Positions 8,708 through 35,266 are shown, numbered from the stretch's first letter. The stretch is DNA of 64,000 bases from Ignavibacteriota bacterium (GCA_963702445.1 CAVPCZ010000012.1:193199-257198), one strand, 5' to 3'. Numbers and translations: made by a program. The notes: generated by a model not told the origin, from the letters alone.

Positions 8708-8763
8708 CACATTGAATAACGTAGCGAGATTCGCGCGGAATTGCAACCCTCGCCCGTGTCGCG

Positions 8764-9731: not shown

Positions 9732-9733
9732 GA

Positions 9734-11026: not shown

Positions 11027-11044
11027 GGTGGTCCTTTGATGTTC

Positions 11045-19026: not shown

Positions 19027-20096
19027 CGGATATACTCTCCATGCTCCTGGCGCGGTAAGAGAAATTCATTGATGGGACGACGCGGAGTCGGCACCGGCTC
19101 CGCCAGTGAATACCCGATTCTCAGCAACAGTTGGGGCCAGACATGCAACCCGAGAAGTCTCTTGAGTTCAAGGCGCAGGGCGGGAACCTGCACAGGCATG
19201 TTGAAGTAGCTGTGCTGGATCCCTTCCGCGGTCAGCAGAAGGAGCATCCGTTCCAGGAATTCCCCCGCCGAAAGCCAGTGGGGAACGGTGTCCTCGCCGG
19301 CAATGGTGATCAGGCCGGGAGCATCAACGCAGAGGTTCTTGTCATGTGCGGCACGCAGTTTTCCCGGATCAATCATGCGGGTCGCCCGGGGCACGAACGG
19401 AGCCACGTTTTCATCAATACCCGCCACTTCTCCCCTCATGCCGTCGGGCTGAGCGCTGTCGCCGGACCGGAGCCACTCCGCCACATCGCGGCGGTACGCC
19501 GGATCCGCCAGAAGCAGGCGATCGGCCTGTGCCACCAGGCCGGCAACGGCATCGTTCAATTTTCCGTCGGTGGACGCAGACACGACGGTCTCCCCGGAGA
19601 CGGCCAGATCCTGCACCTGACGGATGACCGACGAGGGGACCCGGGAAACCAGAAAAGGTTTCCTGTTCGTACGCCTCCGGGTCAACTGGGGAAAGAGGGC
19701 GCTCAGTCCGGCACCGCCGTGGACCGATGCTTCGCCCGGCAGGAGGTTGACGAACGCCAGGGGTTCTTCGCTCGATCCGCTCTGGTTGTACACCACCTCG
19801 CATCCGAAGTCGAAAAAGGCGGCGGCAACCCGGAGATTCATGACCGCGGCGCCGATGCTCATCAGGAGCTCACGCCCGGCAGGATCGGCAACCGGCAGAC
19901 GGCGCGTATAATCCCCGTAGAGTTCCACACCCTCAACACTGACCCGGAAATGCCAGGGTTGTGTGTTGAAGGTGGACGGCGCAAGCACGGCGTAACGGAG
20001 CAGAAACAGAAACTGCTCCTCCACGCCCCCCTCCGCCGGAAACTGTCCCGCTGACGGCAACGTGTACGGTCTGCCCGTGGTAACCACCGGTTTCAC
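19023..20096 (-). CDS. Acg-type tandem nitroreductase-fold protein
   Basis: The 357-aa size, RYAVLAPSTFNTQPWHFRV and a second nitroreductase-like half match the Acg/putative NAD(P)H nitroreductase family. Confidence 0.6.
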   Translation of the reverse strand: MKPVVTTGRPYTLPSAGQFPAEGGVEEQFLFLLRYAVLAPSTFNTQPWHFRVSVEGVELYGDYTRRLPVADPAGRELLMSIGAAVMNLRVAAAFFDFGCEVVYNQSGSSEEPLAFVNLLPGEASVHGGAGLSALFPQLTRRRTNRKPFLVSRVPSSVIRQVQDLAVSGETVVSASTDGKLNDAVAGLVAQADRLLLADPAYRRDVAEWLRSGDSAQPDGMRGEVAGIDENVAPFVPRATRMIDPGKLRAAHDKNLCVDAPGLITIAGEDTVPHWLSAGEFLERMLLLLTAEGIQHSYFNMPVQVPALRLELKRLLGLHVWPQLLLRIGYSLAEPVPTPRRPINEFLLPRQEHGEYIR

Positions 20097-20350
20097 TTCA
20101 GAACCCGGACGAGATCAGGGTTATCCGTGGCTATGGCGTCCACCGGACAGTCTTCGGCCGCTTCACGCATGTACTCCTCTTCTTCCGCTGTTTGCGGCTG
20201 GCGGCTGACAAAGTACCTGTTCGACGATTTCTCAAAATCGAAATTGTCCGGCGCAATGGAGGCGCAGTAGGCGCATCCGTCGCACTCTTCGGTGGTAAAG
20301 AATTTGCCCGAGACGTTTTGCGGCAGCCGTCGTGTCGGTTCGGCGCTCAT
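20093..20350 (-). CDS. Small single-cluster ferredoxin
   Basis: CDGCAYCASIAP ... DCPVDAI pattern. The ATG at 20350 overlaps the haem-lyase stop by ATGA (the ORF-track start at 20365 is also possible). Confidence 0.6.
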   Translation of the reverse strand: MSAEPTRRLPQNVSGKFFTTEECDGCAYCASIAPDNFDFEKSSNRYFVSRQPQTAEEEEYMREAAEDCPVDAIATDNPDLVRVLK

Positions 20351-22581
20351 TGTTTCTCCCTCCATCGTTTCACTATTGCCAGGACAAAGCCCGTCATCAT
20401 CAACACCGTTCCACCCCAGAGGAGGTTGATAAACGGTTTCACACTCGCTTCCACCATCAATATCTCCGGGCTCGGGGTCCCGCCGCCGGCCTGCGTGAGG
20501 CCGAGCACGATGCTCGAGGACGTCGAACCCATGCCCGCGTTCACCCTGAGCAGTCGCACCTCCCCGCCCAGCAGCCGTGAGGGAAGTGCCTCCTGCGCCG
20601 GCGTTCCATCGGCCGCGTAGGTCATCAGCGGGGCCAGCTGTTCCCGTTCATTATCCTTCTGCACGTCGATCACCGCGGCGATGCGCATACCTCCCGCCCC
20701 CATTGCCGCACCCGGGGTCCCGTGGGAACCCATATCGAACCGGTTGAAGGTGATCTGTGCTCCGCCCGCTTCCGACGCGACGCCCTTCACCAGGTTGAGT
20801 TCGACCGTCCGGCCTCCCTCCCTGGGAGGCTCAAGAGACATCGGGGAGATATAGAAATCCCTGAAGGCAAAGGACGAGATGTCCGGATTCCTCATGATCC
20901 CCTGTGAGCCCGCCTCAAACATGACCGGGGACAGCGTGAAGACCTTCCCGTTTCCCTCCGCCCGGACACGGAACACATACTTGTCGTCCGCCGTGACCGA
21001 AAACCCTTCATACGTCAGCGTGTGTCCGAGAGCCGGCACGGGTTGTTCCCGGGGGAGCTGGAACTGCTCCGTCGAACTGTACTTCCCCGTGGAAACAACG
21101 CCGAGCAGAAAGAGTGCGAGACCCATATGGGCCACTTTGCCGCCGTGCAGCAGGATGCCGCCTTTGATGTTGGTGAGCACGATATCCACGTTGACGAACA
21201 GCGCAAACACGGCCGTGAAGACCAGTGCCGCAGTGGAACCCTCGCGCATCCCGGCGACATAGAGAATAAGGGTCACCGCAAACGCCGCGATGAGAGCCCG
21301 GAGGGATTGGCGCGAGGTGAGCCGGACATCCTGTTCTTCCCATTGCGTGTACAGGCTGATGCCGATGAGCAGCGCCATCATGATGACAAGGGGAAGATTG
21401 GTGGCGTCGTAGAATGCGGGTTCGACCCGGGTGGTGGAGAATATCGGCAGGCTGGTCCCGAAAAGGATGACAACCGCGCTGAGCAGGAGGGCAACCGCCC
21501 CGGCGGCAAGCGCAGTTTCGCGCGTGAGCCAGCCGCTTGTTGCACCGTCCGCCGCGAGGGATTTCCATCGGAAGGCCAGCAGGCCGAATCCGGAAAGTGC
21601 AATAAGAGAGAGAAATGCGAGCAGGAGCCAGTACACGGCGGAACCGGGATCGGTGAAGGCATGCACGGAGGCGTCGCCGAGTATGCCGCTGCGGGTCAGA
21701 AACGTGCTATAGATCACCAGGAAGAACGAGACAATGGCGAGTGTCACGTTTGTGCGCGGGTATCTGCCGGTACGGCGTTCCACAAGCATCGTGTGCACCA
21801 GCGCGATGCCTGTGAGCCAGGGAATGAGCGAGGAGTTTTCCACCGGATCCCAGCCCCAGTAACCGCCCCACCCCAGAACACCATACGCCCAGTATGCGCC
21901 GAGCATGATGCCCAGTCCGAGCACAGTCACCGCGAACAGGATCCAGGGCAGACCTTGCTGTGAAAGAAGTGTCCGGCGACCCGTCCAGAGGCCCGCCAGC
22001 GCCTGGCTGAAGGGCGCGGCCATTGCGGCAAATCCCAGAAAGAGGACCGGGGGATGAATCACCATCCAGAAATTCTGCAGGAGAGGATTCAGCCCGCGTC
22101 CGTCGGGGGGGATCTGTCCGGGAGGAATCTGCGGCCACATCTCCCACACCGGGCGGAAGGGGGACTTCGCAACGACAATGAGCAGAAGCATCGACTGGAC
22201 AAACAGAAACACGGTCATCACCCCGGATTCGCTGCCATGCTTCCGCCCGTACGAAGCGAGCAGGAGAGCAATCAGTGCCGAGCAGAGCGCCCAGAAGAGG
22301 AAGCTTCCCTCCTGGCCTGCATAAAAGCTGGACAGGAGGAAGTGCAGCGGCAGCGTGCTGTCGCTGTACCCGTAGACGTAGCCGTTGGTGAAGTCATTTC
22401 GCAAAAGGAGCGCCGTCAACAACGCCGATGCAAGCAGGATGAGAAGTGAACTGAGGTACAGGAGGGCTCGCGGTTGCGAAAGACGACCCCCTTTTGTGGA
22501 GGCAGCGCGAAGGTACCCGAGCGCTGAGAAGAGGGATGCAAAGAGCGCAAGGATGATGAACCAGTGTCCAAGAACAGTCAT
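20347..22581 (-). CDS. CcmF/NrfE-family cytochrome c haem lyase (744 aa, polytopic)
   Basis: WWD domain GAYWAYGVLGWGGYWGWDPVENSSLIPWL matches the CcmF/NrfE signature (WAYxELGWGGxWxWDPVEN). Many TM segments and a CcmF-like C-terminal domain. Confidence 0.85.
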   Translation of the reverse strand: MTVLGHWFIILALFASLFSALGYLRAASTKGGRLSQPRALLYLSSLLILLASALLTALLLRNDFTNGYVYGYSDSTLPLHFLLSSFYAGQEGSFLFWALCSALIALLLASYGRKHGSESGVMTVFLFVQSMLLLIVVAKSPFRPVWEMWPQIPPGQIPPDGRGLNPLLQNFWMVIHPPVLFLGFAAMAAPFSQALAGLWTGRRTLLSQQGLPWILFAVTVLGLGIMLGAYWAYGVLGWGGYWGWDPVENSSLIPWLTGIALVHTMLVERRTGRYPRTNVTLAIVSFFLVIYSTFLTRSGILGDASVHAFTDPGSAVYWLLLAFLSLIALSGFGLLAFRWKSLAADGATSGWLTRETALAAGAVALLLSAVVILFGTSLPIFSTTRVEPAFYDATNLPLVIMMALLIGISLYTQWEEQDVRLTSRQSLRALIAAFAVTLILYVAGMREGSTAALVFTAVFALFVNVDIVLTNIKGGILLHGGKVAHMGLALFLLGVVSTGKYSSTEQFQLPREQPVPALGHTLTYEGFSVTADDKYVFRVRAEGNGKVFTLSPVMFEAGSQGIMRNPDISSFAFRDFYISPMSLEPPREGGRTVELNLVKGVASEAGGAQITFNRFDMGSHGTPGAAMGAGGMRIAAVIDVQKDNEREQLAPLMTYAADGTPAQEALPSRLLGGEVRLLRVNAGMGSTSSSIVLGLTQAGGGTPSPEILMVEASVKPFINLLWGGTVLMMTGFVLAIVKRWREKQ

Positions 22582-22616
22582 TCAGTCTCCGAAAGTGTGT
22601 TGCGGCTAAATGAGGG

Positions 22617-22631
22617 TCAACATGCGTGCCA
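22617..22631 (-). promoter_or_regulatory. Sigma-54-type -24/-12 promoter candidate upstream of the haem-lyase gene
   Basis: The minus strand reads TGGCACGCATGTTGA. The -24 TGGCACG is perfect with correct N4 spacing, and the -12 is TTGA instead of TTGC. A GGAG sits 7 nt before the ATG at 22581. Confidence 0.5.
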
Positions 22632-22710
22632 TGGAAATCCCCTTGAAAACCACGAAAATCACGTTCTGGAAGCCGTTTTAAGGGTTTCCTATCGTGTAAG
22701 AACCAGGGTG

Positions 22711-22728
22711 TTTCCAATACCTGGGAAT
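22711..22728. promoter_or_regulatory. Inverted repeat TTTCC-N8-GGAAT, candidate enhancer (UAS) for the sigma-54 activator
   Basis: tttcc aatacctg ggaat, centred ~90 bp upstream of the -24 GG at 22629-22630. The same half-sites, spacing and distance occur at 35233-35250. Confidence 0.45.
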
Positions 22729-22743
22729 TGGTTTGCAGGAGTG

Positions 22744-22780
22744 CAAAAAAAGCTCCCGGCCCTTTTAGGGGGGGCCGGGA
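22744..22780 (-). terminator. Rho-independent terminator ending the cytochrome operon
   Basis: On the minus strand, CCCGGCCC-cccctaaaa-GGGCCGGG is followed by AGCTTTTTTTG. It lies 63 nt downstream of the lipoprotein cytochrome stop at 22843. Confidence 0.65.
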
Positions 22781-22842
22781 TTGCAGAAGGATGGCTTTTC
22801 TCCGTCTCAGCGGCGGTATGGTGAAGGTCTTCGATGACGGGG

Positions 22843-24246
22843 CTAGAAGCTCCGCTCGGTATTGAAGGCGTTTACTTTGCCGTTGATGTGTTTGGTCTTG
22901 TCGATGATATTGCCGGAGCCGTTGACGACTCCGGGGTGACAGTTGACGCAGCTGGTGAGCGTCGCGGATGTATGGCCGGCCGGAGGCAGGCCGTGACAGC
23001 TTCCGCATGCGCCGTCGGTGCTTCCGCCGTTCCAGGATGGTGCGAAGTTCGTCCCCGCCATCACGCTATCCGTGAAGGCGAACGAGAAGGAAGATGTGGC
23101 GCGCGAAAGACGCCAGGCCCCATGGCAGTATGTATTGCTGCACTTGAATGTTGTGGTGCCGTAGGCCGGAACCGGCAGGTAGTTCCCGCCGGTTCCGGTG
23201 GCAAGACGCGCCAGCGTATCCCGGAACACGACTTCGGCCGGCAATTGTGTGTCAACGTGCCCGGGGGGGAACGTCTGGGCGGGCACCAGATGGCATTCGG
23301 CACATTTCACGGATTTGCCCAGGTTTCCGGAGACAAGATGCTTCTGATGCGCCCCGATGGCGTGAACGACGGGCGGATTGTCCTGTGAATCCCCCAGGAC
23401 AGTCTTGGGCGGTGCGGCGGAGAGAGCATCGCCCGAGGCGGCGCGGAACTGACCGTGACACGTGTTACAGGCTTCAGGGGATTTCGGCGTGCCGCCGGCA
23501 TCGGCATGGCAGGGAACAGTGGAACAGCTCACATTCACCACCGGACCGCCGGTATACGATGCGCCGTGACAGGTTTTGCATTGCGCCAGGGGATACCCCT
23601 TACTCAGCAGATAGCCGGGATGTCCTGACGATGCCTGGAAGACGGTGTGCGGATAGGAAGCATGGCAGGTGAAGCATGATACACCGCTTGTTCCACCGGT
23701 ATAATTCTCACCATGGCACGCGGCGCATTCCGTCAGCTGCCAGTTCTTTCCTTTCAGGTAGCGGCCGTGAGACGCCGTTGATGCGGGATTGCCCCATCCG
23801 GTGCGGTGGGGATACGAAGCATGGCAGGTGTAGCAGGAAACACCGCTTGTGCCGCCCGAGAAATCCGCGCCGTGACAGGCGGCGCAATCGTCCAGCGTCC
23901 CCATGTCCAGGCGCAGGAACTTCCCATGGAACGTCGTCGCGGCTGTATCCACCCAGCCGGGTTTGTGCGGATAGGACGTGTGACAGCCGTAGCACGAAAC
24001 GCCGCTCGTGCCTCCCGAATAGGCCTTCGAATGGCACGACACGCAGTCCGTGTTCTCGTACTGCGGTCCCGACAGTACGGTGCCGTGAAAGGCCGGAGAG
24101 GCGGGATCATTCCAGCCGGTCTCATGAATGCCCTGCGGGGCCATGGGAGCGGGAAGATCTTGTTTCAGCTCGCTGCAGGCCCCGAGCAGCAATGCCGTCG
24201 TGAGCAGAGCGAACGTCGCCGGAAATCGATGAAAGTGTACGCGCAT
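22843..24246 (-). CDS. Multihaem c-type cytochrome lipoprotein, 13 haem motifs (11 CxxCH + 2 CxxxxCH)
   Basis: Lipobox ALLLGAC at residues 18-24. CxxCH x11, plus CSTVPCH (23506-23526) and CSNTYCH (23122-23142), both verified from the DNA. The C-terminal CxxxxCH...CxxCH pairing resembles the Geobacter-type C4xCH/C2xCH domain. Confidence 0.88.
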   Translation of the reverse strand: MRVHFHRFPATFALLTTALLLGACSELKQDLPAPMAPQGIHETGWNDPASPAFHGTVLSGPQYENTDCVSCHSKAYSGGTSGVSCYGCHTSYPHKPGWVDTAATTFHGKFLRLDMGTLDDCAACHGADFSGGTSGVSCYTCHASYPHRTGWGNPASTASHGRYLKGKNWQLTECAACHGENYTGGTSGVSCFTCHASYPHTVFQASSGHPGYLLSKGYPLAQCKTCHGASYTGGPVVNVSCSTVPCHADAGGTPKSPEACNTCHGQFRAASGDALSAAPPKTVLGDSQDNPPVVHAIGAHQKHLVSGNLGKSVKCAECHLVPAQTFPPGHVDTQLPAEVVFRDTLARLATGTGGNYLPVPAYGTTTFKCSNTYCHGAWRLSRATSSFSFAFTDSVMAGTNFAPSWNGGSTDGACGSCHGLPPAGHTSATLTSCVNCHPGVVNGSGNIIDKTKHINGKVNAFNTERSF

Positions 24247-24262
24247 GGGTCCTCCGCCCTCC

Positions 24263-25465
24263 TTAGCCGTGACAGTAACCGCAGAAGTTTCTTCCCTTCA
24301 CGCCATCGGGTCGGGCATTCAGGTCTGTGTGACAGTTGAAGCATGTGGCCCCGGCACTGGTATGCCAGGGTCCGTGCTCATCCTTCAAAAAAGAACCGGG
24401 ATGTGTGCGCGGGTCGGTTCCCCGTATGCCGTCGGCGTCAACATGACAGGTGACGCATACCGGATCGTTGCCCTGCGTGTCGTGGCAGCTCACACAGCTC
24501 TCGATATCGCGCCGCGCGAGGGTTGCATGGGTACCGCCGCCGCTGCCGACACCGATGGTGGCAAACCCCGCCCCCAGGTGCCAGGCCGGCGTGAACGCCT
24601 GCGAGGTGATGTTGTCGCCCGTCGCATGACATTCCGCGCAGAATTCCTGCTGCGAATGGCAGCCGTAGCAGTCGGCGCTCTTCGACTTCGCATCGATGCC
24701 ATGGGTGAACCGGTAGTTCATGTCGTGTGCGAGCTGCAGGCTCATCTGTTGCGAGCCGTTTCCCGGAAACGTCCGCGGGGTGGGATCGGCCATCAGGGCG
24801 CCCTGGCCGAACTGCGCCAGCGCGGCGGGGGCATGACACTCGGCACAGAACGTCTGTGTGTGGCAGGTGGAGCAGCTGGTTTCCAGTGCTCCGACCCGGG
24901 TCAGCTGCTTGTGCTCCTTTTTGAAGTTTCCCACCAGGTGGTCGGGTGGAACGAGCTGCACAAAGCTGGTATGACACGCCTCACACGCGTTGGTCACCTT
25001 CCGGTCGTTGTGGCAGGTGTTGCAGGTCGCCATCGAAGGCATGTGTTTCGGTGCAGCGTAATCGGCCTCTTCGAGTCCGGCATGGCAGGTCGTGCACTGG
25101 ACGTCTTTCTGTGAAACATGCCGTTCATGGGAGAAGAGCAGCTCGCGCACGGCGGGAGCGGCAGGCTGGATATTGTCGGGATCCAGATGGCAGTAGCTGC
25201 ACTGGTTGCCCAGCTGCTCCTCGTGGCAGGACTGACAGTTGTCGTGGCCCGCACGGAGATTGTCGGACGCCAGTTTGCTTGTGGCTGCCGGGTGGCAGTT
25301 TTCGCACGCCACGCCGGCGTCGGCGATATGCGTCTTGTGGGAGAACTTCAGCTGCTTGTTGTCGGCCCGGTCGGGCCACCCGTTCCGGAGGGCGGGTTTG
25401 TGGGCGACCGCGGTGATCAGCCCGGCGGCAACAATGAGCAGGAAAACCAGATAACGGCGGATCAT
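24263..25465 (-). CDS. Periplasmic 14-haem c-type cytochrome
   Basis: N-terminal signal or anchor (MIRRYLVFLLIVAAGLITAVA) and 14 CxxCH motifs in 400 aa. The start overlaps the beta-barrel stop by ATGA (25462-25465). Confidence 0.9.
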   Translation of the reverse strand: MIRRYLVFLLIVAAGLITAVAHKPALRNGWPDRADNKQLKFSHKTHIADAGVACENCHPAATSKLASDNLRAGHDNCQSCHEEQLGNQCSYCHLDPDNIQPAAPAVRELLFSHERHVSQKDVQCTTCHAGLEEADYAAPKHMPSMATCNTCHNDRKVTNACEACHTSFVQLVPPDHLVGNFKKEHKQLTRVGALETSCSTCHTQTFCAECHAPAALAQFGQGALMADPTPRTFPGNGSQQMSLQLAHDMNYRFTHGIDAKSKSADCYGCHSQQEFCAECHATGDNITSQAFTPAWHLGAGFATIGVGSGGGTHATLARRDIESCVSCHDTQGNDPVCVTCHVDADGIRGTDPRTHPGSFLKDEHGPWHTSAGATCFNCHTDLNARPDGVKGRNFCGYCHG

Positions 25466-26772
25466 TGTGCGCCCTCCCCTTTGAAGATGGACAGCCGTTG
25501 CGCGAACCAGTACATCAGCTTCACCTGCAGGCGCAGATCACGCTGGGAGATTTTGTTCGTCAACCATTGCCCCTGCACGTCGAAGGAGAACGCCTGTGTG
25601 GGGCGGACGATCGCGCCGAGCAGCACCGACAGGGCGTTATCGCGTGAGCTTTCTTTGCTCAGGCGGTAGGATGCATACGAAAGCCCGGCGGTCGGGATCA
25701 CGGTCCGGCCGAAGAACGGGTACGATCCCTGGAGGCTGACCGACTGCAATTCTCCTGCATAGCCGTCGCTGCCGGTATACGCGAGGCTGCCGTAGCCGTT
25801 GTTCACGCCCACGCTCCAGCGCGTGCTCTGCTCGTCGGTATAGCTGACGCTCGCCACCCGGGCGAAGGCGCGGAGGAGGGGGGTAAAACCGTACTCCACG
25901 CCTCCCTCGATTTCATTCACCGCATTGGCGACAAACGCCGAGAATATGGAGTTGTACGAGAGTCGCGGCGCGCGGTGAATGTAGTCCGCGGTCAGGGACA
26001 GCGCCTCGGTCACGTACACCCGCGCACCGCCCTGTGCCCGTGCGGTGCGGGATCCGGCGAAGTCATAATCGTACCTTCCGTACGCGGAGAAGCGGCCGGC
26101 ATATTCGTACCGTGCTTCCGCACTGGCCACTTCCTGGGCCGGCGAATCGTTTGCGATATAGTACGACACCGGGGCAAACGAGGTATCGCGCGCGCGGACG
26201 GTCCAGTACGGGTCTCGCTCCTCGTGCCGGTTCATGTAGCTCAGGCCGATGCGTGCGCCCGGCAGGAGTGTTGTCACCACCTGCCCGCCGAAGTGGTAGT
26301 TGTCGTGCAGGTTTTCCCGGACACCCGTGAAGTCCGGGCTGACCGTTGAGCCGGCAAAACCCGTCACCGTCACCTTCTGCTGGAGAAATCGTGCGCGGGC
26401 GAGAAATCCGTCTATCGTCCCGACTCCTGCGCCTGCATACACCGCCTGCCGTCCGACGTTCAGGTCAAGTACCTTGCCGATGTTGGCCCAGGTCAGGTAG
26501 AGGTTATAGAAGCGCACGCGCCCGACGTCGCCGAAGTCCCCGGCCAGATTGGCCGCCCCCTGGATGAAGGTGTTCACGGAAACGTCGCCCTGCGTCATGG
26601 AAAGCTGGATATTCTGGAAGGCGCGAATGCGCTGGTGGGACACGCCCACCGTATCGAACTGTTCCCAGCCGTAGAAGGATGTCGCCAGACGTCCCGTCAC
26701 CAGCTGCGCGGGCGCGCCGGCGACGCAGACCAGAATCAGCAGGGCGAGGGGGAGAGAGCGTGGTGTCTTCAT
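25462..26772 (-). CDS. Predicted outer-membrane beta-barrel (porin-like) protein of a porin-cytochrome module
   Basis: Signal peptide MKTPRSLPLALLILVCVAGAPAQ from ATG 26772. The remaining ~410 aa show alternating hydrophobic/polar strands rich in Y/G/S/T/R with no Cys and no haem motif, and an aromatic-rich C-terminal region (LMYWF). Barrel call by composition and pattern only. Confidence 0.65.
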   Translation of the reverse strand: MKTPRSLPLALLILVCVAGAPAQLVTGRLATSFYGWEQFDTVGVSHQRIRAFQNIQLSMTQGDVSVNTFIQGAANLAGDFGDVGRVRFYNLYLTWANIGKVLDLNVGRQAVYAGAGVGTIDGFLARARFLQQKVTVTGFAGSTVSPDFTGVRENLHDNYHFGGQVVTTLLPGARIGLSYMNRHEERDPYWTVRARDTSFAPVSYYIANDSPAQEVASAEARYEYAGRFSAYGRYDYDFAGSRTARAQGGARVYVTEALSLTADYIHRAPRLSYNSIFSAFVANAVNEIEGGVEYGFTPLLRAFARVASVSYTDEQSTRWSVGVNNGYGSLAYTGSDGYAGELQSVSLQGSYPFFGRTVIPTAGLSYASYRLSKESSRDNALSVLLGAIVRPTQAFSFDVQGQWLTNKISQRDLRLQVKLMYWFAQRLSIFKGEGAQ

Positions 26773-26816
26773 ACACAGTTCCCTTTTGTTGCCGCCTCTT
26801 CGAAAGGTGTACCCGT

Positions 26817-28316
26817 TCAGAGACCGGAATGGCATTCGACGCAGTTGGTCTCCTGCCATGCATCGCCGATATCCTCGGGGTGCTGGAACGGAAGTCCGGC
26901 CACGGTGAGCGTCTGCGGCACGGGATCCGTCCCCTGATACAGAATCGTATGACAGCTGTTACAGTCCTTGCTGATGCGCTTCCCGTCCGCGCTCACATGT
27001 TTCCCGTCATGGCAGCGAAAACAGCCGAGGTCTGTCATATGGCCGATATGGCTCGGGTAGGCGCTCCAGCGTACATTCATGAGGGGAAAGAAGTTCTTCC
27101 GGTATTGCGCAACAAGCTCCTGTCCGGCCGCGAGAATGCGCGCTCCTTCGGTGGCGGCCACCTGCGGATACTCGCGTTCATAGTAGGCGCGCAGCAGGTG
27201 CGGTATGCTGTCCGCCGCTTCCCCGGCTGTGGTATAGGGACGTTTCAGCAGATCCATTGCTGTTTCACGGACACGCGGCAGCGAGGGGCTTATCGTTCCG
27301 CGCGTCAGGCTCCGGTCCACGATGCGGGCGGGGGGAAGATAAATGTGGGATGGGCGGTTGTGGCAATCCATGCAATCCATGCGCGACCACTCCCCACTCC
27401 GCAGGCCGGCGGTGTCCGCCGGCATTTCTTCGGCGGCATACTCGGTGACCGTACCCGTGCGTTGATCTCTGACGCGAACCAGGGGGATCGACTGACGGAG
27501 GGAATCCACGGCAACGTACGTCACTTCATTGGCGGGGTTCACGTGCCAGTGGATGCCGTTGGCGGGTCCCCGTTCTTCATTCCCGCCGCCGATTTTCATC
27601 AGCAGCGCGAGAGTCCACCGGGTGTTCGCTTCATCGGACTTGAAATAGGTGTTGACGTATTTCTTTTCCCCGGCGAAATGGGACGGCCAGTGGCACTGCT
27701 CACAGGTTTCCCGGGCGGGGCGCAGGTTCTTGATGGGGGTAGGGATCGGCCGGGGGTACACGTTGGCAAGCACGGCGTACACCTGGTACGCCCCGGAAAG
27801 TTTGGACTTGACATACCATCCGGCACCCGAGCCGACGTGGCAGTCAACACACTTGACCCGTGCGTGCGGCGAGTTCAGGTAGGCCGTATACTCCGGTTCC
27901 ATAACATCATGACAGGTTGCGCCGCAGAAGGGCACCGATTCCGTCCACTCAAACGTCCGGTAACTCCCGTACGCCGTGAAGAGCAGGACAACGGCCGTCA
28001 CCCCGGCGAAGAGCGCAAGTGCGGACCGGTGATGCGGCACGCCGAGGTCGATCGTGAGGACCTTTTTACTCGCCGGCCGGCCGGCACGCAGACGCCGCCG
28101 CTCCCGTACCGCTCCCACAGGGATCATCAGCAGCCCCAGCAGCAACGGCACCGGCAGGGCGATATACGAGATGATCCCGATGTACGCCGGCGCGTTTTCC
28201 TGCACCATCTCCACCATGGTGAGAAACAGAATCGTCAGAAGGCACGCGCTCGCCAGGGCTGCCCCCACAATACTTATGGGGTTGTAGAAAATCTCCGGGA
28301 GCTTTCTTTTTTTCAT
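26817..28316 (-). CDS. Membrane-anchored heptahaem c-type cytochrome (NapC/NirT-like region; ImcH-like architecture)
   Basis: Three N-terminal hydrophobic segments are followed by FCGATCHDVM (CxxxCH, 27909-27926, checked in the DNA) and six CxxCH motifs. The 499-aa length and layout match the description of the Geobacter inner-membrane quinol oxidase ImcH. Confidence 0.75.
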   Translation of the reverse strand: MKKRKLPEIFYNPISIVGAALASACLLTILFLTMVEMVQENAPAYIGIISYIALPVPLLLGLLMIPVGAVRERRRLRAGRPASKKVLTIDLGVPHHRSALALFAGVTAVVLLFTAYGSYRTFEWTESVPFCGATCHDVMEPEYTAYLNSPHARVKCVDCHVGSGAGWYVKSKLSGAYQVYAVLANVYPRPIPTPIKNLRPARETCEQCHWPSHFAGEKKYVNTYFKSDEANTRWTLALLMKIGGGNEERGPANGIHWHVNPANEVTYVAVDSLRQSIPLVRVRDQRTGTVTEYAAEEMPADTAGLRSGEWSRMDCMDCHNRPSHIYLPPARIVDRSLTRGTISPSLPRVRETAMDLLKRPYTTAGEAADSIPHLLRAYYEREYPQVAATEGARILAAGQELVAQYRKNFFPLMNVRWSAYPSHIGHMTDLGCFRCHDGKHVSADGKRISKDCNSCHTILYQGTDPVPQTLTVAGLPFQHPEDIGDAWQETNCVECHSGL

Positions 28317-28443
28317 CGTATGGAAAGGTGGATGCGGGGCATCGGGCAGGAGACGGGACCGGCCGGTTCGGCGCGGTCCCGCGTACCCGTCGTCTGTTTC
28401 GGTTTACTTCTTGGGAAGCTTGTGCGCGATTTTCGCCCACCAC

Positions 28444-28944
28444 TCATCGTACTTGAAACCCTTTGAACGTCGGGCTTCCGGCGTTGTGGCAGGTTTCGCA
28501 CGTCTTCTTTGCCGCATCACCTGTCACGAGACCGGCCTCGACGGCCTTCGCCTTGTTTTCGGCCTTCGTATGCAGCGTCTTGAAGCCGGATGCCGCACCG
28601 TGGCACGCTTCGCAGGTGACACCTTCCTTCATGTCGAAGGTCTTCTCTACATTGGCGGCGGTTCCACCACCGGCCACATGGCATTTCAGGCACTCGGGGC
28701 TTTCGGCCGGCGGTTTGGCAAGACCCTTTTCCTTGCCGATCTTCTTGGCCGCTTCGCCCTCCAGGGTCTTGTACGCCCCGGCGTGCGCGGTTTTGGCCCA
28801 GATCGTGAACGCCTCTCCCTTGTCCTTCGCCTTGTGACACATGGCGCAGGTTTTGGTGCCCACGAATTTGTTCTCCGCCACCGCTGTGCCACCGCACAAC
28901 ATCAGCGCAACGGCGAACAGAAGGACCACACAGGCTGTTTTCAT
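28444..28944 (-). CDS. Small periplasmic tetrahaem cytochrome c
   Basis: Signal peptide MKTACVVLLFAVALMLCGGTAVA and four CxxCH motifs (CAMCH, CLKCH, CEACH, CETCH) in 166 aa. GGGAGGAAG precedes the ATG. Confidence 0.88.
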   Translation of the reverse strand: MKTACVVLLFAVALMLCGGTAVAENKFVGTKTCAMCHKAKDKGEAFTIWAKTAHAGAYKTLEGEAAKKIGKEKGLAKPPAESPECLKCHVAGGGTAANVEKTFDMKEGVTCEACHGAASGFKTLHTKAENKAKAVEAGLVTGDAAKKTCETCHNAGSPTFKGFQVR

Positions 28945-29008
28945 TTACGGCTTCCTCCCAGAAATGATGGATGATCAGAAATGTACACGAAAACAATACA
29001 AGATGCCA

Positions 29009-29863
29009 CTACTGGTATGCAAACACCATTGCATAGATGATCCATACGACGATGCTGAAGCCGGTACCCAGGGCCGTCCATGCGAACACCCGGATTGCCC
29101 TGATGACGATCGCCGGATAGGGTTCCGCCAGGCGCGACTCCAGTTCGCCGGATGCCGCCACCGATGCGTATTCGGCGGGTTTGTCCATCTTCAACTCCTC
29201 CACCGGCATCCGTCCGGTGAAGATGACCATATCCATCGGAAATTTTTCCGGGCGCAGGTGGGTGTTGAAAAAGTGGATGGTGAAGATGAACCCGGTGGCC
29301 AGCAATGCCTCGTCACTGTGTATGATCGTCGCCACGTTGATCATCCAGCCCGGGAACAGCTGCGTGAAGAATTCAGGGAACCAGAGAGTGAAGCCGGTCG
29401 ACCCGATCACCACCATCCCCCAGAAGACCGCGAAATAGTCGAACTTCTCCCAGTAGGTCCACCGGCCGAATTCCGGGCGGGGCCCCATACCCAGAAACCA
29501 TTTCACGGATGCAACGAACTGGTGCAGATCGGTTTTCGTCGGCAGCATGGTGTCGGGACCGAACAGGAGACCCTTCCAGCCGCCGATTCCCCGCCGCTTC
29601 CGCCGGAACAGGTCCACGATGTGGACCAGGAACACGCCCACCATGATGGTGGCCGCAAACCGGTGGAAATAACCGGCGGTCTCATACCCGCCGAAGAGGT
29701 GGGAGAGAAACGACGCCCAGCCGGTATAGGAAAACTTCAGAGTCATTCCCGTCAGTGCCAGGCTCAAAAAACTGACGATCATCAGGATATGCAGGATCCG
29801 GTTGAGCCGTGTAAACCGGACGTACTGGCGTTCGTTGCTGTTATCCACTGTGCTGTGCTCCAT
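29009..29863 (-). CDS. Cytochrome b subunit (HydC/FdnI-like, polytopic)
   Basis: YVRFTRLNRILHILMIVSFLSLALTGMTL aligns with YLRMTLGERIQHGTLLVSFITLVLTGFAL in the C-terminal domain of the 31858-33993 protein. It has conserved His in TM helices and 4-5 TM segments. Start uncertain: ATG 29863 or GTG 29929, both overlapping the upstream gene. Confidence 0.78.
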   Translation of the reverse strand: MEHSTVDNSNERQYVRFTRLNRILHILMIVSFLSLALTGMTLKFSYTGWASFLSHLFGGYETAGYFHRFAATIMVGVFLVHIVDLFRRKRRGIGGWKGLLFGPDTMLPTKTDLHQFVASVKWFLGMGPRPEFGRWTYWEKFDYFAVFWGMVVIGSTGFTLWFPEFFTQLFPGWMINVATIIHSDEALLATGFIFTIHFFNTHLRPEKFPMDMVIFTGRMPVEELKMDKPAEYASVAASGELESRLAEPYPAIVIRAIRVFAWTALGTGFSIVVWIIYAMVFAYQ

Positions 29864-31853
29864 CTTCCTGGGTTGTTCCTTCCGCCGGGCCCGGAGGCGG
29901 TGGTGTCTGCTCCGCACGTCTGCGTTCACGCTGCCAGCGCAGGGCCCTGGGCAGCCAGAGCAACGTGTGAATGCCGCTCACCACAAATGTGACGACCAGC
30001 AAACCGGTCATTCCCCAGAAGGTCCAGAAGAGCCAGGGATATTTTGCCGGATCATGATGCGTCGCATGGGTAAGGTAGCCCGCAAAGCGCCGGTTTGCCC
30101 CCGGATGGCACTGCTGGCATGTAGCGACAACATTCTCGCGGCTGAGATGTGACCGCGGGTCGGCGATGGGCAGGATGTCATGTGCGCCGTGACAGCTGTA
30201 GCATTGTGCCGTTTTGGTGTAGCCGAGTTGCGACACTTTTCCGTGATACGTGTCGAAGTACGTCTTCGCAATCGCCTCGTGGCATCGGCCGCACTGGTTC
30301 ATAATCGTGAGCTTGAACCCCTCCTCGTCGGCGCGGCGGATCGTATGGGCGCTGTGGCAGTCGTCGCACACCGGCAGCTGCTTCGTGGTCTTCCCGATCT
30401 GGGAAACGTGCACGCTGCGGGCAAATTGTTCCTCCACCCCGTGATGGCACCGTCCGCACGTGGAGGGGACATTGCGCGGATTGATGCTGGAGAGTGTATC
30501 GGCGCGCGGAAGAACCCTGTGCGCCGTGTGGCAACTCGTGCATGTCGCCGTCACCGTTAATCCACCGCGGGACAGCCCCTTGCCGTGGGTGCTTTCACGG
30601 TAATGCTCGACAATCTGATGTTGATCGCCTGTGTACCGCACGGCCGCTTTCTGGCCTTCACGATGGCAACGCGCACAGAGGGCCGGAATATTGGTGGGAA
30701 ACGTGGAGGAAGCGGGCTGGGTCTTGCCGAGAATGCCGTGCGTGCCGTGGCATTCCTTGCATGTCGGCGCATTGGGATCGTTCCGCACGAAGAGCTGTCC
30801 GTGCGTGCTCTGGAGGTATTCCCGGCCGACTTCCGCATGACAGGATGCGCAATCGACACGCTGGGTGATGGTCTGGCAGGGCCGCTCCTTCGCCGCATTC
30901 ACACCGGCATGGCACTGGCTGCAGGAGATCTTTGCGTGCCGTGAGCCCGCCAGATGTCCGGGTGTCACGGCCATGGACCGGCCGTCCCTGGCCGAAACAA
31001 GATCCGCCCTGGCGTGGCACCGCAGGCAATCCCGGTCGGCCATTCCCTGGTCGTAGAATACCTTTCGTACCTTGTGCGGCTGGTGACAATCCACGCATGC
31101 CGGCAGCATATGGGCCTCTTTTTCCCACAGCTCCCCCTTGATCACCTTTCTATGCACACTCTCGATCTGTGCGTGACATTTTGTGCATGTTGCCGCGATG
31201 TTCCTGCGGGCGATGGATGACGCCGGATCCGTGTGCGGAAGAATGGAGTGGGCGGTGTGGCAGGATGCGCAGGTTGCCGACACGATGAGACCTTTTTTCA
31301 GCAGGCCTTCGCCGTGGATGCTCTCGGAGAAATTCTCCAGGATATGATCCTGATGGATCGTCCGCTGCCGGGCGACGGGTGCGCCTTCCTGGTGGCATTT
31401 GCCGCAGAGGAACGGCACCTGCAGGGGCGACACCGGAGAACGCGCATCGGTGACTTTTGCGATGGCGTGGTTTCCGTGGCAATCGGCGCAACGGGGCGCG
31501 AGCGGATCCCCCCGCCCGGCGGCCTTCCCGTGCAGCGAACGGGTGTGCAGTGCGGACTCCGTGCCATGACAATCGGCGCACACCGCAGGTGCAAGGTCTT
31601 CTTCGTGCGGCAATTCCTTCCCCGCAAGATCGGCGTGACAAGCGACGCAGGGAACATCCGCATGGACCGACCCGGCGAATTTCTTCTGGTCCACGAACAT
31701 CGGCACCGTTTTTCCGCGCTTCGTCCCCGTCAGCGCCCTGTCCTCGTGGCAGGCGAGGCAATCGGTGGACTCCTGGGCCCTCGCCCTCCCCGCACAGATC
31801 AGTGCGGCAGCGGCGAGAATCAGGATCCTTGAAAACGCACGGCGGGCGGTCAT
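29841..31853 (-). CDS. 19-haem c-type cytochrome with signal peptide and one C-terminal TM anchor
   Basis: Signal peptide MTARRAFSRILILAAAALICAGRARAQ from ATG 31853, 19 CxxCH motifs, and a C-terminal helix YPWLFWTFWGMTGLLVVTFVVSGIHTLLWL followed by a basic tail. Confidence 0.88.
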   Translation of the reverse strand: MTARRAFSRILILAAAALICAGRARAQESTDCLACHEDRALTGTKRGKTVPMFVDQKKFAGSVHADVPCVACHADLAGKELPHEEDLAPAVCADCHGTESALHTRSLHGKAAGRGDPLAPRCADCHGNHAIAKVTDARSPVSPLQVPFLCGKCHQEGAPVARQRTIHQDHILENFSESIHGEGLLKKGLIVSATCASCHTAHSILPHTDPASSIARRNIAATCTKCHAQIESVHRKVIKGELWEKEAHMLPACVDCHQPHKVRKVFYDQGMADRDCLRCHARADLVSARDGRSMAVTPGHLAGSRHAKISCSQCHAGVNAAKERPCQTITQRVDCASCHAEVGREYLQSTHGQLFVRNDPNAPTCKECHGTHGILGKTQPASSTFPTNIPALCARCHREGQKAAVRYTGDQHQIVEHYRESTHGKGLSRGGLTVTATCTSCHTAHRVLPRADTLSSINPRNVPSTCGRCHHGVEEQFARSVHVSQIGKTTKQLPVCDDCHSAHTIRRADEEGFKLTIMNQCGRCHEAIAKTYFDTYHGKVSQLGYTKTAQCYSCHGAHDILPIADPRSHLSRENVVATCQQCHPGANRRFAGYLTHATHHDPAKYPWLFWTFWGMTGLLVVTFVVSGIHTLLWLPRALRWQRERRRAEQTPPPPGPAEGTTQEDGAQHSG

Positions 31854-31857
31854 GTGC

Positions 31858-33993
31858 TTACACCTTCTCCTCTTTGGGTTCTTCAGAATGCTGCCGGCGT
31901 CTGTACGTCTCCAGCTCAAGAGGATGTTCCTCCTCCATCTCTTCTTCCGTCAGCGTACCCTTCCAGAACGCCAGGTTGATCGGGTAGGTATCGGGGTTGA
32001 AGATCACAAAATAGAAATGCCAGACGATGATGGCGAGTGTGGCGAGCCAGGCTTCATAATAGTGCACCGTACGTGCAACATCCCACCAGAGTTTCGTGAG
32101 AAGGCCCAGGAAGATGTTGTCGAACCAGAGAATGACCCCCGTCAGACCCATAACACCCGTTCCCCAGACCAGCGCCCAGTACTCGCTCTTTTCTATGTAG
32201 CTGAAACGGCCGAATTTGGGTTTGTCCGGTGAGATGCCGAAGTTGTACTTCAGGACATTCAGCGCGTCAAACAGATCCTGCCGCCGGGGCAGAAGGTCCC
32301 GGAGCAGTTCTTTGCCGCGGGGGACAAAGAAGAGATACCAGAGGTGGTAGAGACTCGCGGCAACCATGGCCACGGCGGCGATACGGTGCAGGATGCCCCG
32401 CAGTTCAAACATCCACGGACTGACACTGCGTATCGGCGCCACCCACCAGGCATCCGGATACCGGAGGGCGAACCCCGTCAGGACGAGCGTGATAAAACTG
32501 ACGAGCAGTGTACCGTGCTGGATCCGTTCGCCGAGGGTCATGCGGAGATAGAGCCGGTGTGCGGTGTGTTTGCGGGGCAGTTCCCCCCGGCGGTACTGGA
32601 GCTGCCGCCGGGACTTCTTGACAAAGTCCAGCAGATTATGGACAAACATGCCGCCGATCAGCACCACAATCAATACGATATATCCGTTTGAAACGAAATA
32701 TAGCACGCCGTCATGTCCGGATGTGGCGATGACGTGCACCGAACCACGCGTGAAATTCGTGTTCGCGCCGGGATGGCAGGTCCCGCACGTCCTGGTCAGG
32801 TTGTCGGGGTGAATGCGCGAAGAGGGATCCGTTGACGGTTTGATATCATGCACGCCATGGCAGCTTGCACAGTTGGCGACCTCCACCGATCCTGCACGCT
32901 GGGCAAGACCGTGGAAGCTGTCCTCAAAACTCTGGAAGCGGTCACCCGCCAACCCGTACTTTTGCGTCAGCTTAACGGAGCCATGACAGGGAGAGCACAC
33001 CTGCGAGGAGACGTTTGCCGCCGCGACCGGTGAACGGGCGTCTTGCGGCGAAAGAATATTGTGTTCACCGTGACAGTCCGTGCAGGTGGGCGATGCCGTT
33101 ACGCCTCCGGCGAGCGCCTGGCCATGAATGCTTCCGGCGTATTGTGCGCGCGTTTCGCCGTGGCATTTCCCACAGGTACCGGCGATGTTCCTCTTGGCGA
33201 CGGAGGAGGTCGGGTTCGACCCCTTCTTCATGGTGTGGCTGCCGTGACAATCCGTGCAGGCGGCCGCGGAATCGTTGCCCGCCTTGACGGCCTGCCCGTG
33301 CACGCTCTTTTCGTAGCTGGAGACGAAGCCCGCGGAAGGACCGACCCGTTCGCGCACTTCGGGTTTGTCCAGGTGGCAGCTCAGGCACATTCTGGCCTGG
33401 TGTCCGTGGGCCGTGGTGGAACTGCTGTCCCGGGCGGACTGTACTGCATGCTCGCCGTGACAGTCGATGCAGCTGGGCGCACCTTTGACCCCCCGGACGA
33501 GCGCAAGACCGTGGTCAGACTGAAGGAACCGGACGTTGATATCTCCGTGGCATTTTGCACAAATGCCCTCGGCAAACGCAGCCCGGTGCACCGGCTCCTG
33601 GTCCGTCACCCTTTTGACGGAATGCGCCGTGTGACAATCCGCGCACGAGGCGGCGGGACGGTTTCCTTTGACGCTCCGCCCGTGCACGCTCTTTGCAAAA
33701 TCGCTGAACTGATCACCCTCGTGACAGTTCAGGCATTTCACCGGAGTGATCTTCGCCTTATGAGGAAGTTCGGAAGGTTTGAACCCTTCATGACATCCCA
33801 CGCAGCCCAGCGCACTGTGGGCTGAGGAGGCGAACCCTTTGCCTTCGACAAACAGGGAGATCGTCCTCCCCTTCTTCGTCATCGACAAGGAGGCGTCGCT
33901 GTGGCACATGAGGCAATCTTCATCAGATTGCGCCGGCACAAAGGGGGGAAACAGCAATCCCCCCAGTATCAGGGTCATGACGTGTTTCAGCAC
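31858..33993 (-). CDS. Fusion of a 13-haem periplasmic c-type cytochrome with a HydC/FdnI-like cytochrome b membrane domain (CbcL-like)
   Basis: 13 CxxCH motifs are followed by about five TM helices with conserved His. Start taken at GTG 33993 (GGAGAGAAGC upstream, signal peptide LKHVMTLILGGLLFPPFVPAQS); ATG 33978 is possible. ATG 34146 lies upstream of the predicted promoter, so I reject it. Confidence 0.85.
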   Translation of the reverse strand: MLKHVMTLILGGLLFPPFVPAQSDEDCLMCHSDASLSMTKKGRTISLFVEGKGFASSAHSALGCVGCHEGFKPSELPHKAKITPVKCLNCHEGDQFSDFAKSVHGRSVKGNRPAASCADCHTAHSVKRVTDQEPVHRAAFAEGICAKCHGDINVRFLQSDHGLALVRGVKGAPSCIDCHGEHAVQSARDSSSTTAHGHQARMCLSCHLDKPEVRERVGPSAGFVSSYEKSVHGQAVKAGNDSAAACTDCHGSHTMKKGSNPTSSVAKRNIAGTCGKCHGETRAQYAGSIHGQALAGGVTASPTCTDCHGEHNILSPQDARSPVAAANVSSQVCSPCHGSVKLTQKYGLAGDRFQSFEDSFHGLAQRAGSVEVANCASCHGVHDIKPSTDPSSRIHPDNLTRTCGTCHPGANTNFTRGSVHVIATSGHDGVLYFVSNGYIVLIVVLIGGMFVHNLLDFVKKSRRQLQYRRGELPRKHTAHRLYLRMTLGERIQHGTLLVSFITLVLTGFALRYPDAWWVAPIRSVSPWMFELRGILHRIAAVAMVAASLYHLWYLFFVPRGKELLRDLLPRRQDLFDALNVLKYNFGISPDKPKFGRFSYIEKSEYWALVWGTGVMGLTGVILWFDNIFLGLLTKLWWDVARTVHYYEAWLATLAIIVWHFYFVIFNPDTYPINLAFWKGTLTEEEMEEEHPLELETYRRRQHSEEPKEEKV

Positions 33994-34119
33994 GCTTCTC
34001 TCCGGAATCAGACTACCAATGGATATAAGGGGGTCAATCAACATGCCAAGGTTCGATCGTTGAAATTGTTGAAATTTGCCACATCTTCGATCGACACTCA
34101 CTGTCTTTTTTCCCAAAAA

Positions 34120-34136
34120 TGCGATATTGGTGCCGG
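34120..34136 (-). promoter_or_regulatory. Sigma-54-type -24/-12 promoter candidate upstream of the CbcL-like gene
   Basis: The minus strand reads CCGGCACCAATATCGCA, with GG-N10-GC spacing exact (GGCAC ... TCGCA against the consensus TGGCACG-N4-TTGCW). It lies 38 nt after the receiver-gene stop. Confidence 0.45.
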
Positions 34137-34173
34137 AGATTTGCACACCTGGGAAAAGGGTGTCGGGGTGGGA

Positions 34174-34656
34174 TTAGGAAAGGCCTGCGAGGAGATCTTC
34201 CACCCTTTTCGAGATTTGTGCGATCTCAAAGGGCTTATAAAAGACGGAATCTACATGCTCACGGATGGCCCGGTCGAGATTCACCTCCCTGGAATTATAG
34301 ACATACAGGAGGATAATCGGCAGTGTGTGGTTGGCCCCCCGCAACCCATCCAGCCGCTCGATGAGCTTCTCCGAGGGAACCGCATCCACCATGACAAGGT
34401 TTGCGGAATAGTCCGCCGCAAGGCGGTCGAGCATTCCCAGATTCGTTGTCGTGATGACATTATACCTGTCCTGAAACAGCATGGAGAGACTGAAGCAGAA
34501 GTTCAGGTCAGGGCTGTACAGCAGGATCGTCTTCTTGTTTTCACCGACATCCGTATCGGGTGCCCGTGCGTCCTTCCGGTGTTCGGCTTCGCCGTGGTGT
34601 GTTTTCACCGTATATCCTCGGTTCGTGTCACCGCAGATGGAGTTCCTTTTCGACAT
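34174..34656 (-). CDS. Single-domain receiver (CheY-like) protein with a degenerate acidic pocket
   Basis: KKTILLYSPD ... ANLVMVDA ... PIILLYVY ... YKPF follows the REC beta1/beta3/beta4/beta5 pattern, but SPD replaces DD and Tyr replaces the beta4 Ser/Thr. Alternative GTG start at 34608 (GAGGA 6 nt upstream) would remove the 29-nt overlap with uspA. Confidence 0.6.
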   Translation of the reverse strand: MSKRNSICGDTNRGYTVKTHHGEAEHRKDARAPDTDVGENKKTILLYSPDLNFCFSLSMLFQDRYNVITTTNLGMLDRLAADYSANLVMVDAVPSEKLIERLDGLRGANHTLPIILLYVYNSREVNLDRAIREHVDSVFYKPFEIAQISKRVEDLLAGLS

Positions 34657-35104
34657 CCTCTTTTTGAAGGATGTTTTCGCGGAACGGGTGCGGCTTGACG
34701 GTCAACACGGGGATTCCGGAAGATCGGACGATCCGTTCGGCGACGCTGCCCAGAAGCATGTGGCGCAACCCCGTCCGGCCATGCGTGGCAATCACAATCA
34801 GATCGATTCCCTCCTGCTCGGCGAACCGGCGGATCTCCTCCGCGGCTTCCCCTTTTTTCACGACCAGTGCAATACGTGTTTCCGCCGGCACATGGGCATG
34901 CGCGAATTCTTCGAGACTTCTTCTTGCCTCTTCCTCATTCCTCGGATGACCCTCTCTTCCGAGGAACCCTTCCCGGCCATCGACCACATGAAGCAGGAAC
35001 AGGCGGGATGTATACAGGGTGCCGAAGGACGTGGCGTACTCCACGGCTGCCAGCGAGAAGTCAGAAAGGTCGGTGGTGACGAGTATTTTCTTCAGGAAGA
35101 CCAT
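34628..35104 (-). CDS. Universal stress protein (UspA family)
   Basis: KKILVTTDLSDFS ... LFLLHVV ... IDLIVIATHGRTGLRHMLLGSVAERIVRSSGIPVLTV (ATP-binding G-2x-G-9x-G(S/T) type motif). Confidence 0.88.
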   Translation of the reverse strand: MVFLKKILVTTDLSDFSLAAVEYATSFGTLYTSRLFLLHVVDGREGFLGREGHPRNEEEARRSLEEFAHAHVPAETRIALVVKKGEAAEEIRRFAEQEGIDLIVIATHGRTGLRHMLLGSVAERIVRSSGIPVLTVKPHPFRENILQKEDVEKELHLR

Positions 35105-35137
35105 CGTTATGACTCCCGTTGTCCTTACGGGAGTTTT

Positions 35138-35152
35138 TCAAGAGTTGTGCCA
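35138..35152 (-). promoter_or_regulatory. Sigma-54-type -24/-12 promoter candidate upstream of uspA
   Basis: The minus strand reads TGGCACAACTCTTGA: TGGCAC, correct spacing, and a -12 of TTGA as at 22617-22631. It lies ~35 nt upstream of the uspA ATG, with GGGAG as a possible SD. Confidence 0.5.
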
Positions 35153-35232
35153 ACAACGTGGGGGGGGTGCCGGGGCGGAGAGGCCGAAAAATCCCCGTTT
35201 TTGGCTGAAGAAGGGTACTCCCGGCACCCGGG

Positions 35233-35250
35233 TTTCCGAATTGTGGGAAA
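35233..35250. promoter_or_regulatory. Inverted repeat TTTCC-N8-GGAAA, candidate enhancer (UAS) for the adjacent sigma-54 activator
   Basis: tttcc gaattgtg ggaaa, centred ~91 bp upstream of the -24 GG at 35150-35151 and 17 nt downstream of the activator gene stop. Matches the repeat at 22711-22728. Confidence 0.45.
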
Positions 35251-35266
35251 GCAGGCTATGAAATTC

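Follow-up and report, generated by a model that had tools for sequence, protein, structure and literature searches.

An ImcH orthologue with the family's CX3CH first haem site in a candidate extracellular-electron-transfer cluster of an uncultured Ignavibacteriota bacterium

Introduction

Cytochromes of the ImcH family sit in the inner membrane, where they take electrons from the quinone pool and send them on towards extracellular minerals. The member described first is ImcH of Geobacter sulfurreducens (GSU3259), a protein of about 500 residues with three N-terminal transmembrane (TM) helices and a NapC/NirT-like region. Its gene is monocistronic, and its genetic phenotype shows that the cell needs it to reduce extracellular acceptors of high potential (Levar et al. 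2014, PMC4251993). The legend of Fig. 1 in that study gives the first ImcH haem motif as CXXXCH (CX3CH below), and homologues are listed there in the Ignavibacteria lineage. A later survey found ImcH homologues across 12 phyla, in which an atypical CX3CH adjoins the membrane domain and is followed by 5-9 CX2CH motifs; these homologues have three TM motifs, with two exceptions, and Geobacter-type ImcH shares 31.5-49% identity with the homologues of other phyla (Zhong & Shi 2018, PMC6295460).

Geobacter ImcH co-fractionates with succinate dehydrogenase (PMC4251993; bioRxiv 10.1101/2023.05.03.539133). When purified from Shewanella oneidensis, it contains 6.6 Fe per protein, is reduced by menadiol and passes the electrons to PpcA (Pimenta et al. 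2023, bioRxiv 10.1101/2023.05.03.539133). In the structural model of the same authors, haem 1 is ligated by His137 and Gln179 beside the conserved residues E127, K173 and Y188, and TM helix 3 is superposed on the helix of NrfH; a partial high-spin EPR signal was attributed to haem 1 (Pimenta et al. 2023).

Two smaller quinol dehydrogenases serve as further comparators. NrfH of Desulfovibrio vulgaris (2j7a/2vr0) has one TM helix followed by haem 1 directly at the quinol site, four haems and a stable complex with NrfA, and the proximal ligand of its haem 1 is the Met of the CXXCHXM motif (as cited in Pimenta et al. 2023). CymA of Shewanella oneidensis is a tetrahaem inner-membrane menaquinol oxidase of the NapC/NirT type, about 190 residues long and anchored by one TM helix; it is confined to Proteobacteria and supplies electrons to periplasmic cytochromes and to a conduit in the outer membrane. 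The two CymA homologues of Rhodoferax have a CX3CH first site (Zhong & Shi 2018, PMC6295460).

Here we report the architecture and gene neighbourhood of an imcH gene, its orthology and the conservation of its features. The gene lies within a 64,000-nucleotide stretch of DNA (the window) from an uncultured Ignavibacteria/Bacteroidota-type bacterium represented by a MAG. A preliminary description of the gene had read its product as an ImcH-like membrane cytochrome and had drawn attention to the three-residue spacer of its first haem site.

Materials and methods

The homologue survey comprised 405 distinct proteins: 120 close relatives, 150 representatives of 50%-identity clusters, and proteins translated from the loci of named genomes. 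The homologue tree was built without the motif columns. The reference ImcH was a 504-aa protein of a Geobacter sp. MAG (L160:2367-3881(-)), which stands in for GSU3259 of G. sulfurreducens PCA. It was retrieved by a DNA pattern that combined the published N-terminus MTLRKT with the F-C-x3-C-H spacing; two protein-seeded scans of genome contigs gave no Geobacter among the best 80 loci, and the MTLRKT start was absent from the top 150 representatives. The reference begins with MTLRKT and has E127, C132, C136, H137, K173, Q179 and Y188 at the positions published for G. sulfurreducens ImcH. Open reading frames, hydropathy (Kyte-Doolittle) and haem motifs were taken from listings and scans of the window, profile alignments were made with HMMER, and an AlphaFold2 model of the window protein was compared with the PDB by Foldseek.

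Results

The imcH gene starts with ATG and encodes a 499-aa product (Table 1). The motif scan found one CX3CH and six CX2CH sites in this protein, and the hydropathy profile gave three hydrophobic segments near the N-terminus and none after residue 125, so that the preliminary count of three hydrophobic segments and seven haem sites in 499 residues is borne out. The helices of the AlphaFold2 model (13-38, 44-78 and 94-125) agree with the three segments. Four Lys or Arg residues lie within the N-terminal 12 residues and nine in the loop 69-97, a pattern that fits a predicted N-in topology with a periplasmic haem domain. Residues 100-185 match the Pfam family PF03264 (NapC/NirT, Cytochrom_NNT; E = 2.6e-13, 50.5 bits against a cut-off of 24.1), and the C-terminus falls in Pfam models of the c7/c3 type. 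A 595-aa open frame on the plus strand (26679-28466) runs antisense over the whole of imcH; in DNA of 60% G+C it is most probably a shadow frame, since it is the minus frame that carries the strong homology.

Table 1. Positions of imcH, its protein features and the neighbouring genes, counted from the first nucleotide of the window
Feature	Position	Strand	Residues	Remarks
PAS histidine kinase	36624-38048	-		head of cluster
Sigma-54 response regulator	35267-36730	-		head of cluster
CbcL-type 13-haem protein fused to cytochrome b	31858-34146	-
19-haem protein	29841-31919	-		part of second CbcL-type module
Separate cytochrome b	29009-29929	-		follows the 19-haem protein in second CbcL-type module
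c554-like tetrahaem periplasmic cytochrome	28444..28944	-		4 CxxCH; Pfam Cytochrome_C554, E = 8e-17; upstream neighbour of imcH
imcH	26817..28316	-	499 aa	stop codon 26817-26819
TM helix 1	28221..28277	-	~14-32	Kyte-Doolittle peak 2.45; model helix 13-38
TM helix 2	28107..28184	-	~45-70	Kyte-Doolittle peak 2.33; model helices 44-53 and 55-78
TM helix 3	27966..28022	-	~99-117	Kyte-Doolittle peak 2.05; counterpart of the single NrfH anchor helix
Family signature F-C-G-x-x-C-H-x-V-M-x-P-E	27891..27929	-	F130 to E142	holds haem site 1 (CGATCH, 27909-27926, from residue 131) and Met139 (27900-27902)
Haem site 2, CVDCH	27837..27851	-	156-160
KLSGAYQ	27783..27803	-	K172 to Q178	proposed quinol-site Lys and distal Gln of haem 1
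Haem site 3, CEQCH	27690..27704	-	205-209
Haem site 4, CMDCH	27360..27374	-	315-319	inside the invariant stretch MDCxDCHNRPxH
Haem site 5, CFRCH	27009..27023	-	432-436
Haem site 6, CNSCH	26949..26963	-	452-456
Haem site 7, CVECH	26829..26843	-	492-496	absent from ~60/405 homologues
Barrel-like (porin-like) protein	~26772-25462	-		probable start 26772; downstream of imcH
14-haem cytochrome	24263-25465	-
Lipoprotein cytochrome	22843-24246	-		11 CxxCH and 2 Cx4CH
CcmF/NrfE-type protein	20347..22581	-	744 aa	Pfam Cytochrom_C_asm and CcmF_C; possible haem lyase

Comparison with the reference ImcH indicated that the two proteins align end to end without large gaps, with 216 of 493 columns identical (44%), which lies inside the published range of 31.5-49%. 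The haem motifs keep the same register at every site (7/7), with CX3CH first and six CX2CH motifs after it, and the window residues E126, C131, C135, H136, K172, Q178 and Y187 correspond to E127, C132, C136, H137, K173, Q179 and Y188 of Geobacter ImcH; the Glu of TM helix 3 and the Lys, distal Gln and Tyr that surround haem 1 are thus shared. Together with the length, the three TM helices and the NapC/NirT region, these results uphold the earlier ImcH-like reading. The host genome (5.18 Mb, 28 contigs) holds one copy of imcH, and the gene was found in 29 of 31 related genomes.

Among solved structures, only that of the NrfH quinol dehydrogenase (2j7a_C) matched at E <= 0.01 (E = 4e-4), in an alignment that begins at TM helix 3. 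The first three haem motifs of the two proteins align, as do Met139 with the Met of CXXCHXM, K172 with the NrfH Lys, and Q178 with the Asp distal to haem 1 (HMMER). The window protein differs from NrfH in its motif spacing (CXXXCHXXM), its three TM helices and some 290 additional residues, which carry more haems. The NrfH model TIGR03153 scored 50.2 bits over region 100-210 (E = 2.7e-13) against a cut-off of 134.2, and the window protein, with its three TM helices and seven haem sites, falls outside that family. It also falls outside the NapC/NirT subfamily TIGR02161, whose members are tetrahaem proteins of about 190 residues (19.4 bits against 310.6); the TorC model gave 20.5 bits against 455, and no significant family-level match to CymA was found for the window protein. 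The AlphaFold2 model has a mean pLDDT of 73.8 and drops below 50 near haem sites 1 and 2, an expected weakness of a model that lacks the cofactors. Foldseek gave no match of the model to the PDB at E <= 0.001, the top matches (Brr2 helicase and others) being noise; the NrfH-like fold is thus argued from sequence and literature only.

Reading the reverse complement from 27926 to 27909 gives tgc ggc gca acc tgt cat, which encodes C131-G-A-T-C135-H136 in the context F-C-G-A-T-C-H-D-V-M; the segment FCGATCHDVMEPEYTAYLNSPHAR of the window protein lies in this haem-site-1 peptide. The three-residue spacer is therefore genuine and not a slip of translation, in agreement with the preliminary description. 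A CX3CH motif arises by chance in 1.8% of shuffles of the window protein; the case for a real site rests on conservation, as every one of the 400 homologues that cover the region has C131, C135 and H136. CX3CH occupies site 1 in 393 of the 405 homologues (97%), CX2CH in 7, and the remaining 5 are truncated at the N-terminus; among homologues derived from loci, which span 16 named phyla and unclassified MAGs, it is found in 134/134. The surrounding signature is similarly well kept among the 405 (F 399, C 400, G 383, C 400, H 400, V 355, M 400, P 402 and E 374). On the homologue tree, the seven CX2CH forms represent at least six independent changes, so that reversion is rare, scattered and repeated. 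These repeated changes mark the site-1 position as a true haem site, interchangeable with a canonical one. The survey thus indicates that CX3CH is the ancestral, maintained state of the ImcH family and not a peculiarity of the window gene.

The proposed quinol-site lysine K172 is kept in 403 of the 405 homologues, and the proposed distal glutamine Q178 in 383. Met139, three positions after the motif His, is present in 400.

Analysis of the surrounding genes indicated that imcH is embedded in a complete candidate extracellular-electron-transfer cluster on the minus strand (22843-38048). A histidine kinase and a response regulator stand at its head, two CbcL-type modules and the c554-like gene lie upstream of imcH, and a porin-cytochrome trio (22843..26772) lies downstream. 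The order of the cluster is kept in the closest MAGs (L001, L002 and L004), in which the trio is syntenic, and parts of it recur widely. CbcL-type or cytochrome b homologues occur in ~40-45 of 80 related loci, upstream of imcH among the loci listed, and the c554-like gene adjoins imcH in loci L001-L004 and L016. The cluster shares with G. sulfurreducens the presence of imcH and a CbcL-type protein in one genome; imcH is monocistronic there (PMC4251993), whereas here it lies inside an operon-like series of genes on the same strand, and the host is an Ignavibacteria/Bacteroidota-type bacterium instead of a member of the Desulfuromonadia. No promoter-like or terminator-like sites were found on the minus strand flanking imcH. 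The 12 cluster ORFs searched (17698-34146 and 35267-38048, leaving out the 160-aa ORF 34174-34656) gave no match to Cytochrom_C552 above the cut-off, ImcH itself scoring 20.8 against 24.1.

In three more distant loci of the Ignavibacteria type (L008, L017 and L026; ~7500-10600), imcH is directly followed by a gene of ~150 aa, a gene of 359 aa and an 11-haem cytochrome, a set that may be a module other than the porin-cytochrome trio of the window.

Discussion

The window gene is a normal ImcH orthologue, and the electron-transfer cluster that surrounds it is interesting. Its product is very probably an inner-membrane menaquinol:periplasmic-cytochrome oxidoreductase with a three-helix anchor and a periplasmic haem domain. 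The CX3CH first site, which the preliminary description had implicitly treated as new, is an already known hallmark of the family that was published in 2014 and again in 2018 (PMC4251993, Fig. 1 legend; PMC6295460). Since this site is a documented family trait, the contribution of the window gene is a further orthologue, in an uncultured Ignavibacteria/Bacteroidota-type host. The value of the locus for annotation is that it marks the host as a likely mineral or electrode respirer, in which three candidate quinol oxidases (ImcH and the two CbcL-type modules) would be wired to a porin-cytochrome conduit.

The biochemistry behind this reading comes from published work on Geobacter ImcH, a protein that is occupied by seven haems, reacts with a menaquinol analogue, works electroneutrally and transfers electrons to PpcA. 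In the mechanism that we propose, haem 1 would be bound at CX3CH right after TM helix 3, at the membrane surface and next to a quinol pocket of E126, K172, Q178 and Y187. Menaquinol would be oxidised at haem 1 with release of protons to the periplasmic side, and the electrons would travel along seven closely spaced haems to haem 7, which would in turn reduce periplasmic multihaem cytochromes. We infer both a role in the reduction of extracellular acceptors in this organism and, from gene context, the electron partners of the protein. The likely recipient would be the adjacent c554-like tetrahaem protein, which is a candidate acceptor, or else the 14-haem cytochrome of the porin-cytochrome conduit encoded downstream.

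The NrfH-like features of the protein bear on two other interpretations, both of which we rejected as very improbable. Because region 100-210 matches NrfH (TIGR03153 and 2j7a_C) and the Pfam NapC/NirT family, the protein might be taken for an anchor of the NrfH/NapC/TorC type, which would serve a soluble periplasmic reductase, for instance of nitrite or nitrate, and not extracellular electron transfer. Its scores, however, are far under the curated cut-offs for NrfH, NapC/NirT and TorC, its three TM helices and seven haems contrast with the one helix and four or five haems of such anchors, and the 12 cluster ORFs searched include no gene of the NrfA, NapA or TorA type but multihaem cytochromes, a barrel and CbcL-type proteins. 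The same register with NrfH, whose haem 1 aligns with site 1, argues against a hexahaem cytochrome in which the CX3CH site is vacant and its residues serve a structural purpose or form a disulfide. Such a protein is suggested by the non-canonical spacing, and the occupancy of the window protein is a prediction from its sequence; yet its two cysteines and histidine are kept in every homologue covering the region, seven homologues have a canonical CX2CH at exactly this position, and the iron content of purified Geobacter ImcH and the EPR signal attributed to haem 1 speak for an occupied site (bioRxiv 10.1101/2023.05.03.539133). The preliminary description had named a homologous position without a haem site, or a protein with only six haems, as findings that would count against it; what we found is a haem motif in all 400 homologues and a Geobacter protein with close to seven Fe.

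We regard as improbable, too, that electrons run in the reverse direction, with the protein acting as a quinone reductase that charges the menaquinone pool with electrons from outside the cell, supplied by Fe(II) or a cathode. With haem potentials of -150 to -358 mV, Geobacter ImcH is suited to oxidising menaquinol (bioRxiv 10.1101/2023.05.03.539133), and the cluster around the window gene resembles reductive porin-cytochrome pathways. It is true that multihaem chains are intrinsically reversible and that relatives of CymA and of CbcL/MtoC are found both in organisms that reduce metals and in organisms that oxidise them, but the survey that reported this found ImcH homologues only in Fe(III) reducers (PMC6295460). 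Menaquinol oxidation by a heptahaem ImcH is the reading that we retain as the most probable, and the sequence offers nothing that speaks against it.

For the quinol-oxidising ImcH, the survey figures (97% CX3CH, rare and repeated reversion, and an invariant Met) sharpen the question of how the haem at the quinol site is axially ligated. The published model imposes the motif His as proximal ligand by construction and leaves the equivalent of Met139 unmentioned (bioRxiv 10.1101/2023.05.03.539133). Met139 aligns with the ligating Met of NrfH and is kept in more homologues than the proposed distal Gln. From these alignments it is possible, though in our judgement unlikely, that haem 1 is ligated throughout the ImcH family by this invariant Met in place of the motif His, as in NrfH. 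The extra spacer residue of CX3CH and the extra residue in CH-x-x-M could then position the Met. The seven natural CX2CH homologues (P0110, P0132, P0144, P0169, P0242, P0244 and P0266) are ready comparators for the role of the extra spacer residue.

The CcmF/NrfE-type gene beyond the porin-cytochrome trio is an extra copy, given that a separate ccmA/B/C/F set lies on another contig of the same genome (C16, ~317400-322000, L166). It may encode a dedicated haem lyase. Variant sites with CX3CH or CX4CH spacing can be matured by the Ccm system of E. coli. The accessible part of the literature yielded nothing specific on the maturation of CX3CH sites, and dedicated lyases are described there for CXXCK and CX15CH sites (PMC3601427). 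The preliminary description had hinted that site 1 needs special maturation. That need is weakened by the finding that Geobacter ImcH received about seven haems in Shewanella oneidensis (bioRxiv 10.1101/2023.05.03.539133), which leaves a dedicated CX3CH lyase possible but not required by the evidence. A similar CcmF (744-752 aa) lies ~3 kb after imcH in loci L008, L017 and L026 (~10500-12800). In these loci, the CX3CH of ImcH is the sole atypical motif among the scanned plus-strand ORFs of at least 150 aa.

The homologues also vary at the C-terminal end. The seventh haem site is lost in ~15% of the sequences. In some lineages the ImcH core is extended C-terminally to 20-22 haem motifs, as in P0126 (876 aa), P0129 (939 aa) and P0176 (940 aa), and some of the extended homologues carry a second CX3CH.
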